Below, one piece after another: positions 12,688 through 13,875 of a stretch of DNA of 23,925 bases (the first letter of the stretch is position 1; each line of letters begins with the position of its first letter). Where the stretch lies: the IMG/VR virus record IMGVR_UViG_2654587569_000016. The stretch is one strand, 5' to 3'. Made by a program: the position numbers and the translations under genes. Origin of the DNA: a virus (Duplodnaviria; Heunggongvirae; Uroviricota; Caudoviricetes). A model generated the notes under the pieces. The model searched no databases and was not told the DNA's origin. It worked only from the letters and a program-made list of their open reading frames with translations.

Positions 12688-13875
12688 TTACTCCATGCTA
12701 AGTGAATCCTGATAGCGCTTAAATGCCTCTGCGAAAGCCAGAGCTGCATCAGCATTTGATACCATGTATTCTTCAGTTATGCCTGTTTTGGACTGGAAAT
12801 ATAACTTTCCATAAATGCAAATTGGAATTTGATAGTTATCTTTAAATCGTCGGTCTGGTGAGCCATCTTTATTTGTTTTTGCCCATGTATGTCCAGCTAT
12901 GCTGGCATCACTCGGAACACCATCCTCTTCATGGAACCCTTGATGCTGCGCATTAATTTGTAATACCCGTAAGTCAATCAGGGCAAATACCCCATCGGGG
13001 CGGGGAATTACAGCAATGCCGGGATAAAGTAATATATCGTCGCCATTGGCGTTTTCAAATCGCATTGCTCGTCCAGCAAAACGAATTAGATCTGTTGAAG
13101 CGAAATCAAATACAACTGGATGACGATCAACTGCTCGTGTAGCTAACGTCCTTTCTGCAAACTGATCTGTAGCTTTATCTGCGGTAATATCCCATTTTTT
13201 GATGCTTGATTTTAAAATATCGAAAGCACGAATCATTGCAGCATAAGCCCGTTGTGAGGAATCGTTATTTTCGAAATCAATGACGATTTTAGTGTTATCT
13301 TCCCAGGATACAAGACGAGATACTTCTGCTTGTGTTTGTGGTAGCGTTACTTCAAGTTCTGCAATGCGACGTTTATAAAACCATCGAAACAGGCTTGATT
13401 TACGTCGAGCCAATTCGCTCTTTTGTCTTGATTCTTCTACAAGAGCTTCTTGTAAGTCCGTTGCTATTTCCGTTCTCTGTTCTCGTGCTTTAACGATCAA
13501 GTCTCGTAAAGGTAAAAGAGATGTGCTTGTCAAGGCCTCTACTGAGGCACTAGAGATTTCATTCATGCCTGCTTGTGGCATGTACATTTTTGCATTTGAT
13601 GGAGTGTTGTCTGAAATTAACCCAAGTGTATGAACAGGAGATTCTATAGACGACGGATTTAGCGGAATGGTTGTGGATGGTTTATCTTTGTATGGTAAAT
13701 GAGGTGATGTATACGATAAACCAGAACCGGGTAACCCTACAGTTGCTTTAATTCCTTTTGGGTTAACATTAACTGTGGCTCCGGGAACACCAAAACTTGC
13801 GCTTACCCCATGTTTACCGATGTTAAGGCGCACTCCGGGGAAAATGGTAAAAGTTTGTCTGAAGCGAAGAGACAT
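12688..13875 (-). CDS. Protein of unknown function with N-terminal DUF4236-like glycine-rich segment
   Basis: 395 aa; N-terminus MSLRFRQTFTIFPGVRLNIGKHGVSASFGVPGATVNVNPKGIKATVGLPGSGLSYT; opposite strand to flanking phage genes; visibly AT-richer than neighbours (not computed). Confidence 0.75.
   Translation of the reverse strand: MSLRFRQTFTIFPGVRLNIGKHGVSASFGVPGATVNVNPKGIKATVGLPGSGLSYTSPHLPYKDKPSTTIPLNPSSIESPVHTLGLISDNTPSNAKMYMPQAGMNEISSASVEALTSTSLLPLRDLIVKAREQRTEIATDLQEALVEESRQKSELARRKSSLFRWFYKRRIAELEVTLPQTQAEVSRLVSWEDNTKIVIDFENNDSSQRAYAAMIRAFDILKSSIKKWDITADKATDQFAERTLATRAVDRHPVVFDFASTDLIRFAGRAMRFENANGDDILLYPGIAVIPRPDGVFALIDLRVLQINAQHQGFHEEDGVPSDASIAGHTWAKTNKDGSPDRRFKDNYQIPICIYGKLYFQSKTGITEEYMVSNADAALAFAEAFKRYQDSLSME

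Follow-up and report, generated by a model that had tools for sequence, protein, structure and literature searches.

An antisense DUF4236-family gene beside antiterminator Q as candidate single-gene defence cargo in a phiP27-like prophage

In phage phi80, TaiEcA is a single-gene prophage defence encoded antisense in the Q-controlled region. Its expression falls once Q-driven transcription starts. The Tai gene lies ahead of the packaging module and is paired with a cognate counter-defence gene (PMC11364771). Morons and conversion genes, among them stxAB, bor, lom, rexAB and sieB, are dispensable foreign cargo between conserved modules. PD-Lambda-1 (PADLOC PDLC03976), reportedly described by Vassallo et al. 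in 2022, is a single gene of about 400 aa.

The window, by which we mean the whole 23,925-nucleotide stretch of Caudoviricetes DNA analysed here, holds a cargo gene that can be set against each of these. Like Tai, it is a single gene lying antisense within the region of a lambdoid genome that Q controls, and Tai supplies the regulation model we use for it; unlike Tai with its counter-defence gene, it has no conserved partner ORF. Tai was rejected as a relative, being unrelated to the window protein on an indirect test: tblastn with that protein (TaiEcA itself not being the query) against 50,697 phage records, among which the presence of phi80 is unconfirmed, gave no phi80-named match among the matches listed or in the organism tally. 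HepS was likewise considered and found unrelated. The likeness to PD-Lambda-1 lies in position and size, since its homologue L22 of phiP27 (PADLOC 2e-89) occupies exactly the same slot in the same backbone; however, the two are unrelated in sequence, L22 lies on the plus strand, and the window protein has no PADLOC match. As with morons, expression from the prophage is presumed for the window cargo, but it lies off the stx site and shares homology with none of the genes named above. A further comparison concerns relatives of the window protein that are anchored, combining a transmembrane (TM) helix, a peptidoglycan-binding or SH3 domain and a cytoplasmic unit, with a co-transcribed helicase-nuclease. 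Their logic resembles ZorAB with ZorC/D or KwaA with KwaB, but they are not homologous to Zorya or Kiwa (52 divergent family members gave only coiled-coil noise at E≥1e-3 against PADLOC), the window protein is soluble and solitary, and where the family gene adjoins genuine Zorya and Kiwa loci it does so as a separate gene.

The cargo gene and its slot beside Q

The cargo and its surroundings comprise the following features.

12155..12520, plus strand: antiterminator Q, Q82-type, convergent with the cargo (PF06530, E=2.6e-51)
12521..12687, no strand: intergenic stretch from Q stop to cargo stop, 167 nt, module-specific (sequence, scan)
12688..13875, minus strand: DUF4236-family cargo gene, 395 aa plus stop (ORF list; phrog_17982 match; GC3)
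13876..13954, minus strand: cassette 5' region, with SD-like AGGGA at 13887-13883, a conserved leader and a -10-like TATTAT at 13929-13924
13933..13964, plus strand: terminator-like hairpin and T-run, a stem of 7 pairs then AGGATTTTTG (scan)
13955..14091, plus strand: conserved regulatory block, right bound of the slot (alignments; junctions mapped in five loci)
14215..14412, plus strand: small TrmB-like/phrog_331 ORF, first shared backbone gene past the slot (phrog_331, E=3.6e-47)
14563..15621, plus strand: N6/N4 DNA methyltransferase, backbone (PF01555, E=3.6e-44; PADLOC MTase_II, E=1e-154)
15662..15905, plus strand: three tRNA genes, Met-CAT, Arg-TCG and Arg-TCT (ARAGORN)

The gene stands in the ORF list exactly as an earlier note on this DNA had read it, a 395-aa minus-strand frame directly after Q and opposite to its flanking genes: its left neighbour is Q, and the ORFs from 8785 to beyond 18000 are all on the plus strand. 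The ATG start is backed by the N-terminus MSLRFRQTF, kept in 30 homologues, and by the SD-like AGGGA 7 nt 5' of it. The AT-richness claimed for the region is real, with a windowed GC of 0.39-0.41 over 12501-14000 vs 0.49-0.55 in the flanks. The GC and codon-usage comparison that had been proposed places the cargo (GC 0.417) at a GC3 of 0.293, vs 0.55-0.58 in the helicase, DnaC-like gene, methyltransferase and TrmB-like ORF. In other hosts the family gene lies below its flanks in GC in 8/10 cases checked, level with them in Yersinia and higher in Azospirillum.

The cargo is carried by 13/5,426 E. coli genomes, and near-identical phage backbones exist without it. Across the same 5,426 genomes, close copies (≥90% identity) of the window Q allele occur only in the 13 carriers. 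An Edwardsiella phage repeats the layout of Q followed by antisense cargo. The earlier note had taken the Q-proximal slot for a cargo position, and sister phages bear this out: between Q and the leader block they hold a PD-Lambda-1 homologue, HsdM/HsdS, an antisense ompC or nothing. Among them the closest relatives have the ompC porin, Stx2 phages leave the slot empty, and phiP27, SE11, CP035832 and OkiPb01695 carry cargo of other kinds. The window gene is thus a dispensable insert between conserved modules, missing in close relatives and atypical in base composition as morons are, and these comparisons support reading it as foreign cargo that the phage can do without, in a slot of variable content just past Q. 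The slot is not, as had been supposed, the Stx toxin position. stxAB lies about 2 kb further downstream. In between come the TrmB-like ORF, whose homologues carry 198-nt CDS annotations, then the methyltransferase and the tRNAs, and stxAB directly follows the tRNAs in phiP27 and in the Stx2d phage annotation. We rejected the Stx-slot reading because the leader/terminator block lies downstream of the cargo, and about 1.8 kb separate the cargo from the tRNAs further on.

The regulatory block at the right-hand edge of the slot is, in its upstream part, common only to phages with related Q alleles. It contains a promoter-like TTTACA-N16-TATGCT (14009-14036), then the leader GTTAAGAGTGGTTACTTCGCCACAC, shared with the Edwardsiella phage, and, at 14067-14091, an intrinsic terminator formed by a hairpin and U-run (RNA fold -22.2 kcal/mol). 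A consensus scanner called promoter-like sites at 13972-14036 in the window, but for phiP27 and the Stx2d phage it called none at the corresponding junction. No Rfam family matched in the leader, and a paper on Stx-phage pR' regions did not map the promoter for the phiP27-like backbone. We infer, from conservation across phages together with the terminator fold, that 13955-14091 is the qut/pR'-tR' block; lying between Q and this putative block probably puts the cargo upstream of the late promoter, not within the late operon.

On the cargo side of this boundary, the TATTAT hexamer lies about 48 nt 5' of the ATG with no good -35, and the consensus scanner found no minus-strand promoter in the cassette 5' region. 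This region is conserved with family copies in unrelated contexts, and the -10-like hexamer is similarly placed in 7/9. On the plus strand, the hairpin at 13933-13964 stands at the end of the stretch antisense to the cargo. The scan of 12521-12687 found no canonical terminator on either strand, none following the cargo stop codon, and that intergenic region had no homology to four compared loci (L001, L002, L011 and L012).

Protein family and predicted architecture

The N-terminus of the window protein, described earlier as DUF4236-like, is a true DUF4236. In a Pfam profile search, PF14020 matched residues 3-56 at E=7.2e-20 and 71.7 bits (gathering cut-off 27 bits), covering positions 1-55 of the 55-residue profile, and it accounts for 14% of the protein. 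The claim that the remaining 330 or so residues match nothing holds for curated libraries, in which residues 91-395 matched no Pfam, NCBIfam, PADLOC or PDB entry, and fails beyond them: the protein as a whole is phrog_17982 (E=1.2e-170, residues 1-393 vs profile positions 1-382 of 390), a large conserved family. A search with the body alone retrieves 2,902 representative clusters at 50% identity. By these homology searches it defines a very large, strongly conserved, uncurated family, and the window protein is no orphan. The family occurs in at least 310 species of many phyla, from Proteobacteria to Bacteroidota and beyond, with a patchy distribution. Homologues of the window protein share 61-99% identity, and Enterobacterales and Rhodobacterales copies are 62% identical. 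Between the cargo and the Edwardsiella copy dN is 0.19 with dS saturated, and by such substitution estimates purifying selection is acting on the cargo gene.

PF14020 and phrog_17982 both match the window protein, and both are labels without a function. The literature yielded no published function for DUF4236, PF14020, IPR025330 or phrog_17982 proteins, in agreement with the earlier description of the gene as undescribed. Many phages, lytic ones included, encode DUF4236 by itself or joined to a different C-terminus, and the body of about 300 aa has no Pfam model. The protein is absent from known and candidate defence models, no PADLOC-DB v2.0.0 family matching it at E≤1; NCBIfam gave no match to it either. 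The majority form of the family is soluble, about 400 aa long and usually solitary. Longer forms have an extra TM helix and a periplasmic SH3, PG-binding (PG_binding_1) or PDZ domain.

The protein divides into five segments, all on the minus strand.

13708..13869: DUF4236, a basic Gly-rich beta-meander of short strands, residues 3-56 (PF14020; AF2)
13606..13707: Pro/Ser-rich variable linker, predicted disordered, residues 57-90 (alignment A1; pLDDT)
13510..13605: conserved linear motif SAK.YMPQAGMNEISSASVE.LTS.SL.PL, residues 91-122 (alignment A1)
13291..13509: antiparallel helical (coiled-coil) hairpin, residues 123-195
12691..13290: alpha/beta domain, residues 196-395 (AF2; alignment columns)

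AF2 places the DUF4236 strands at residues 7-12, 15-20, 23-30, 33-38 and 41-47. The linker has a pLDDT of 31-46 and is indel-rich and poorly conserved in alignment A1. The linear motif is predicted disordered on its own (pLDDT <50) and has many invariant columns in A1, its core EI.SA....LTS..L persisting in the divergent alignment A3. Residues 121-395 are predicted at a pLDDT of 95.4. The alpha/beta domain is modelled as one helix, about 11 strands and a C-terminal helix, and W228, D229, R242, W331, N335, D341, R343, N347 and S373 within it are invariant across the family. The structure prediction and neighbour search that had been proposed produced no characterised protein: Foldseek vs PDB found no neighbour of the alpha/beta domain at E≤1e-3, and the weak top matches above that threshold were PH domains; the domain may be weakly PH-like.

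No effector-type domain (nuclease, TIR, pore or protease) is recognisable in the window protein, and inspection of the invariant residues by eye gave no convincing PD-(D/E)xK or other catalytic pattern. Neither a TM segment nor a signal peptide was found, and no hydrophobic 19-mer appeared even at a relaxed threshold; the sequence-based predictions show a cytoplasmic protein. Superinfection exclusion of the classical membrane type, one of the roles raised earlier, is unlikely because these segments are missing. Proteins of the SieA/Imm/gp15 type require a TM segment or a signal or lipoprotein signal, whereas the window protein has none and begins with the basic DUF4236.

Genomic neighbourhoods of the family and rival explanations

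Association with defence genes was surveyed in an unbiased census covering 76 loci in species-representative genomes. Membership in a defence repertoire is said to have been defined operationally by Doron et al. in 2018, through enrichment beside defence genes and protection in a sensitive host. The commonest immediate neighbours were PDC-S37/Hhe/Mokosh-like helicase-nucleases (6), ZorD (2) and PDC-S02 (2), and Mrr and YhcG nucleases and transposases were also among the commonest. A defence-type immediate neighbour was present in roughly 11-15/76 loci, a raw count without a matched background in which many neighbours are unannotated; the association of the family with defence genes is accordingly qualitative. 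ZorC and ZorD beside the family gene were confirmed (E=1.7e-293). Five tight operons, in which the gaps range from -28 to +12 nt, join the family gene to a helicase-nuclease. AbiJ, HEPN/MNT and Lamassu-type genes turn up in the vicinity of anchored relatives, and PDC-S31 is a further defence-type neighbour of the family. On a Serratia ICE and a conjugative plasmid the family gene stands by a Gabija-like pair (OLD-TOPRIM/AAA ATPase and UvrD), and on a Yersinia island it occurs with type I R-M, HNH, Mrr and Kiwa. In these mobile elements and islands it is a solitary cassette, as it also is at prophage ends in Klebsiella and E. coli and in a lambdoid nin region. Two alphaproteobacterial copies sit amid housekeeping genes. 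A two-gene system in the window was rejected because neither intergenic region holds a conserved small ORF and no neighbour recurs across contexts.

A conserved uncharacterised protein that recurs beside anti-virus systems is a good candidate for a single-gene defence. We consider it moderately likely that the cargo is a stand-alone anti-phage (or anti-MGE) immunity gene of an undescribed family, carried on a mobile cassette and expressed in the lysogen. In its favour are the foreign composition and dispensability of the gene, the other defence and conversion cargo of the slot, the conserved 5' region of the cassette, the defence-type neighbours, the patchy spread over phyla, the strong constraint and the Tai precedent. 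Counting against it are the copies amid housekeeping genes, the late-operon and tail-module positions of phage-borne relatives, and the failure to recognise an effector-type domain or a consensus promoter.

We think it unlikely that the gene instead confers a non-defence benefit, as an envelope conversion factor, an anti-defence or establishment factor of MGEs, or an exclusion or competition factor of plasmids and ICEs. In relatives, periplasmic SH3, PG_binding_1 and PDZ domains follow a TM helix, which would suit an envelope role, as would the OmpC porin that occupies the slot in the closest relatives, but the window protein itself lacks a TM helix, a signal peptide and any domain that binds the envelope. 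Copies on conjugative plasmids and ICEs, and an AcrVA2-like gene in one family neighbourhood, would suit an anti-defence or competition role; against this, the Serratia plasmid copy is on the relaxase side by the Gabija-like pair, away from leading-region-type genes, and chromosomal copies stand by Zorya, Kiwa or R-M or in helicase-nuclease operons, settings typical of defence and not of anti-defence.

It is quite improbable that the gene is a lytic-cycle accessory that modulates Q, the expression of late genes, the timing of lysis or the assembly of virions. Cargo beside Q in two phage lineages and the strict linkage of Q allele to cargo point that way. So do the only full-length homologues in sequenced phages, which follow TerL in the late operon of Microcystis phages, and DUF4236-only proteins in lytic phages, with the phiCD38-2 one in the tail module, between tail chaperones and the tape-measure gene; a phage-cycle role is therefore possible. 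But the cargo strand is opposite to all lytic genes, most phages of the same backbone have the slot empty or otherwise filled, the family is common on plasmids, ICEs and chromosomal islands, and tblastn found a full-length homologue in only 2/50,697 phage records.

Just as poor a prospect is a selfish or hitch-hiking cassette without present benefit, for instance xenogeneic DNA that is silenced, or a lone leftover from a multi-gene system, unable to function by itself: it would account for the very low GC3, typical of H-NS-silenced DNA, the lack of a consensus promoter, the two-gene operon of anchored relatives, a dN/dS of 0.40 among close E. coli copies and truncated copies on Klebsiella plasmids, but the frame is annotated intact and full length in 13/13 E. 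coli carriers, as it is in dozens of genera, copies from different bacterial classes are 62% identical at saturated dS, the 5' region is conserved, and the usually solitary soluble form is the majority one.

Proposed role in the lysogen

For the favoured reading, an immunity gene expressed in the lysogen, we propose that a self-contained mobile cassette, one gene with its own 5' stretch of about 100 nt, landed in the hotspot of a phiP27-like lambdoid prophage. In the lysogen no transcription would read out of Q because pR is repressed, and the cassette would be transcribed from its own weak promoter. Upon induction, early transcription through Q would cross the cargo antisense and shut the gene down, as shown for taiEcA of phi80. 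The protein consists of a DUF4236 meander on a flexible Pro/Ser tether, followed by the linear motif, the coiled-coil hairpin and a beta-rich domain with an invariant polar patch. The beta-rich domain and the conserved motif may sense an infection cue, which could be a protein of the phage or nucleic acid near the inner membrane, while the coiled coil may serve dimerisation or oligomerisation and the tethered DUF4236 may engage the target. Phage development would then be blocked, via abortive infection or a block of replication or entry.

In the anchored relatives, the same cytoplasmic unit would be tied to the wall by the TM helix and an SH3, PG-binding or PDZ domain, with a helicase-nuclease co-transcribed. 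This arrangement suggests an envelope-proximal sensor or adaptor role, with the soluble prophage form acting alone. More tentatively, it is possible that proteins with DUF4236, coiled coil and beta-domain form a new phylum-spanning class of immunity proteins with a fold lacking a solved relative. Its wall-tethered anchored members would serve the co-transcribed helicase-nuclease as envelope-proximal sensors or adaptors, by a surveillance logic that parallels Zorya and Kiwa without kinship to them, and its soluble form would be autonomous and silenced by antisense early transcription on induction of its own prophage.

If the gene is protective, it would represent a widespread single-protein immunity family whose core of about 300 aa lies outside Pfam, PADLOC and PDB, and the gap from Q to pR' in phiP27-like and Stx-phage-like prophages would be a defence hotspot. 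The gap would matter for STEC biology because the same backbones carry stx. The anchored relatives would open a tractable path to mechanism, since TM/PG-binding/SH3 forms share an operon with the helicase-nuclease and sensor and effector would thus be encoded side by side. That partner is a different protein, none of which is encoded in the window, and is clade-specific, Azospirillum argentinense (locus L024) being without it; in Azospirillum-type anchored relatives the operon partners match PDC-S37/Hhe/Mokosh MkoA-type helicase-nucleases at E of about 1e-55.

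The antisense gene and its slot downstream of Q

A 395-aa ORF with an ATG start is present on the minus strand at 12688..13875, where the earlier note had put it. Its start codon is backed by the N-terminus MSLRFRQTF, which an alignment showed to be common to 30 homologues, and an SD-like AGGGA lies 7 nt 5' of the ATG. The left neighbour (12155..12520, + strand) is a Q82-type antiterminator (PF06530, E=2.6e-51), convergent with the cargo gene at a stop-to-stop distance of 167 nt. Every other ORF, from the replication genes through the lysis/packaging genes, is on the + strand, confirming the opposite orientation of the cargo gene. 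Its suspected AT-richness proved to be a strong anomaly in a composition comparison: the gene has a GC content of 0.417 and a GC3 of 0.293, versus a GC3 of 0.55–0.58 in the nearby helicase, DnaC-like, methyltransferase and TrmB-like genes. Close E. coli copies gave a dN/dS of 0.40 from just 40 differences, and long-range constraint on the gene was strong (dN 0.19, dS saturated).

From integrase to portal, the window covers the left half of a phiP27-like lambdoid prophage. Junction mapping in five related elements always placed the cargo after the Q stop codon and before a conserved block (~13955 to 14091 in the window). The upstream part of this block was common only to phages with related Q alleles. 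The downstream part was found in all mapped elements, including an Edwardsiella phage, and contains the following features:

14009-14036, promoter-like TTTACA-N16-TATGCT
GTTAAGAGTGGTTACTTCGCCACAC, leader
14067-14091, GC-rich hairpin with a U-run (fold -22.2 kcal/mol)

We infer that the block comprises an allele-specific qut/pR', then a short leader and tR'; the layout is as expected for such a region. At the corresponding position of phiP27 and a Stx2d phage, a simple scanner reported no promoter, the promoter of the phiP27-like backbone was not mapped in one paper on Stx-phage pR' regions, and Rfam gave no family at the leader block.

The content of the slot varies, and in many Stx2 phages it is empty. 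In phiP27 it holds a + strand PD-Lambda-1 homologue, L22 (NP_543074; phiP27 record L001, 3531-4760), annotated as 'GIY-YIG nuclease family protein / unknown'. The C-terminal 216 residues of L22 match this validated defence protein (PADLOC E=2e-89); thus, the gene that separates Q from the late leader in the Stx2e phage phiP27 is a defence gene. The slot of E. coli OkiPb01695 (L011, 4430-7685) contains HsdM and two HsdS genes with no HsdR, and an antisense ompC-like porin occupies it in SE11 (L012, 4517-5599) and in CP035832 (L029, 13322-14419), the window's closest relative. The slot holds the DUF4236 gene in the window, as it does in 13 of 5,426 E. coli genomes, and exactly those 13 carry close copies of the Q allele (at least 90% identity). 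Divergent Q alleles (85–87%) occurred in four other E. coli genomes, with different cargo. The arrangement of a PF06530 Q with the antisense cargo behind it recurs in an Edwardsiella tarda prophage, whose cargo protein is 72% identical.

Protein family and architecture

A profile search bore out the proposed DUF4236 N-terminus, with a Pfam match at residues 3-56 (E=7e-20). The earlier remark that the rest of the protein matches nothing recognisable stands for Pfam, NCBIfam and PADLOC, where the residues beyond DUF4236 had no family match, but it fails against phrog_17982, which matches the protein end to end (E=1e-170), and against a large family of homologues. The cargo protein is no orphan. 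Full-length homologues of ~400 aa occur across Enterobacterales at 61–81% identity, those in Rhodobacterales (Paracoccus, Phaeobacter, Sedimentitalea) keep 62% identity, and their names go no further than 'DUF4236 domain-containing'. Using residues 90-395 as query, a sensitive search returned 2,902 clusters with E<1e-3 and 406 with E<1e-30 (representatives at 50% identity), indicating that this body belongs to a large family that Pfam does not model. From alignments and two AlphaFold runs, the domain layout is as follows:

Residues 1-56, DUF4236, a basic Gly-rich beta-meander
Residues 57-90, disordered, variable Pro/Ser-rich tether
Residues 91-122, highly conserved linear motif, predicted to be disordered in isolation
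Residues 123-195, antiparallel helical hairpin
Residues 196-395, alpha/beta domain with a long C-terminal helix at its end

The AlphaFold model of residues 121-395 had a pLDDT of 95.4 and a pTM of 0.87. Invariant residues among 52 members, down to 31% identity, include W228, D229, R242, W331, N335, D341, R343, N347 and S373. The core of the protein is structurally unplaced.

We found no TM segment in the window protein. Longer forms make up ~44% of 149 family representatives, and at least 38 of them carry one TM helix ~40 residues past the body, with bacterial SH3, PG_binding_1 or PDZ domains after it. This arrangement indicates that in these anchored relatives the unit of DUF4236 and body is cytoplasmic and tethered to the cell wall. 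DUF4236 also occurs by itself: gp15 of C. difficile phage phiCD38-2 (L033, 4001-4642) is a 213-aa DUF4236-only protein whose gene is flanked by the tail-assembly-chaperone region and the tape-measure gene, and further DUF4236-only ORFs were seen in lytic Klebsiella phages (~140–150 kb) and Brevundimonas jumbo phages. DUF4236 is therefore a generic module.

Genomic contexts and proposed role

Other contexts were picked by taxon and sequence length, with the neighbours unseen at the time of choice. In Klebsiella/Raoultella and E. coli O8:H25, the gene is solitary at the extreme end of a prophage, adjoining tail-fibre genes; in E. coli O8:H25 (L013, 8463-9203; L014, 2205-2993) it is followed by a same-strand DUF2971 gene matching the PADLOC candidate PDC-S31 (E=7e-18). 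Serratia carries the gene among the cargo of an ICE and on a conjugative plasmid, in each case next to an OLD-TOPRIM/AAA ATPase and UvrD pair, which is the Gabija architecture. The Enterobacter copy belongs to a nin region; the lambdoid prophage around it encodes a further protein with a BstA C-terminal domain (PF26567). In Yersinia massiliensis, the gene has type I R-M on one side and HNH/ScoMcrA, Mrr, Kiwa, SymE and CDI genes on the other, and in Paracoccus and Phaeobacter it is solitary amid housekeeping genes. Anchored SH3 relatives have HEPN/MNT, AbiJ/Abi_C and an AcrVA2-like gene nearby in Azospirillum, and an LmuB_C gene, MC3 and CTD7 domain genes and IS66 in Bosea. Near these relatives we also observed a cluster of QueC, PfkB/nucleoside-2-deoxyribosyltransferase and Ogg-HhH genes (Azospirillum, L024, 3407-6337; Bosea, L027, 9789-12803), which may be a DNA-modification or defence module. 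Unannotated copies with 78% identity lie on K. pneumoniae plasmid p90CM2-172k (L032, ~6001-6810) and five similar plasmids; they span only residues ~124-393, and since the N-terminal third (1-123) is absent, these IncF plasmid copies are apparently pseudogenes.

About 110 nt 5' of the ATG are conserved among copies from unrelated contexts, so the mobile unit consists of the gene and its own 5' region. Seven of nine copies have a -10-like hexamer ~45–50 nt upstream (TATTAT at 13929-13924 in the window), and none of the nine 5' regions has a convincing -35. The gene is AT-richer than its surroundings in eight of ten other hosts, level with them in Yersinia and GC-richer in Azospirillum.

A census of ~100,000 species-representative genomes, made in one scan with a single conserved peptide pattern, gave 310 confirmed family loci in Proteobacteria, Bacteroidota, Verrucomicrobiota, Acidobacteriota, Chloroflexota, Nitrospirota, a CPR bacterium and an archaeal MAG. 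Among the 76 loci analysed for neighbours, taken from the best 80 of the 310, the gene usually stands alone (median gap 157 nt upstream and 132 nt downstream), with no consistent strand relation to its neighbours. We tallied Pfam and PADLOC matches among the 146 immediate neighbours; because the tally has no matched background, the enrichment for defence genes is qualitative only. Most frequent, with six cases, were large SF1 helicases that carry REase_MTES_1575/DUF559 and match PDC-S37, Hhe and MkoA/MkoC. Three neighbours were SmpB, a marker of prophage ends at ssrA, and ZorD, PDC-S02, Mrr, YhcG nucleases and transposases occurred twice each. ZorC and ZorD were confirmed directly upstream in Roseibium (ZorD E=1.7e-293); in Roseibium and Labrenzia (L048, L052, 2394-8825) a soluble member sits 409 nt downstream of these genes and borders a type I Zorya locus. 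A Mokosh-like helicase was confirmed 79 nt upstream in Chryseobacterium. Five tight operons were also confirmed, where the gene for the anchored DUF4236-SH3 form comes after that for a ~1,665-aa helicase-nuclease; the gaps of -28 to +12 nt indicate that the pair is probably a two-gene system. These operons (L055, L056, L058, L059 and L072, ~2400-9400 each) come from four Azospirillum species, one as a plasmid copy, and one MAG, and their SF1 helicase, with REase_MTES_1575/DUF559, matches PADLOC PDC-S37, Hhe and MkoA.

The most economical reading of these sequence comparisons is that the cargo would be a mobile single-gene cassette for an undescribed immunity protein, inserted into a defence/conversion hotspot that separates Q from the late promoter. 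A role in the phage cycle is possible: the only full-length homologues in sequenced phages lie in the late operon of Microcystis phages, and DUF4236-only proteins occur in lytic phages and the phiCD38-2 tail module. An envelope-related or anti-defence role is possible too but fits less well, because the window protein has no envelope-targeting feature and chromosomal copies adjoin Zorya, Kiwa and R-M systems.

Under the immunity reading, pR would be off in the lysogen, leaving the cassette's own weak promoter free to fire. Upon induction, early transcription reading past Q would cross the gene antisense, up to a + strand terminator-like hairpin (13933-13964), and this would silence the cargo gene and leave its own phage unharmed. 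The same silencing behaviour has been shown for taiEcA, an antisense defence gene of phi80 (PMC11364771). Within the protein, we tentatively propose that the beta-rich domain, together with the conserved motif, detects an infection cue close to the inner membrane, that the coiled coil might oligomerise, and that the tethered basic DUF4236 module could engage the target. The co-transcription of anchored relatives with a helicase-nuclease suggests that they act as sensor or adaptor at the envelope; the soluble form would itself need to supply the effector function or else bring in a host factor. Existing catalogues list the protein as hypothetical (DUF4236, PHROG 17982), the defence catalogues tested hold no entry for it, and we found no paper discussing it. 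It is a candidate for MGE-borne single-gene defence, for which the anchored two-gene variant is informative.

The stx position and other elements of the window

The earlier note had equated the slot with the place where Stx phages keep their toxin genes. This was incorrect: in related phages, stx follows the TrmB-like ORF, the methyltransferase and the tRNAs. No toxin genes follow the tRNA genes in this prophage. A 98-aa TerB-domain ORF (16198-16494, + strand, Pfam E=1.3e-5) lies after three tRNA genes, at the position of stxAB in phiP27 and Stx2 phages, and in CP035832 this position is taken by a TerB family gene of 141 aa. The stretch that separates the TerB-like ORF from the holin genes contains a strong match to the STnc100 sRNA (16666-16846, + strand, 117 bits, E=2e-25). 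Rfam gathering-level matches were also obtained for isrK (7771-7847, + strand, 57.6 bits) and C4 antisense RNA (7872-7959, + strand, 85 bits), a P1/P7-type antisense immunity RNA pair within a lambdoid early region. ARAGORN called the tRNA at 15662-15737 as Met (CAT); its phiP27 counterpart is annotated as tRNA-Ile (ileZ), and the window tRNA may therefore be a lysidine-modified Ile2-type tRNA.
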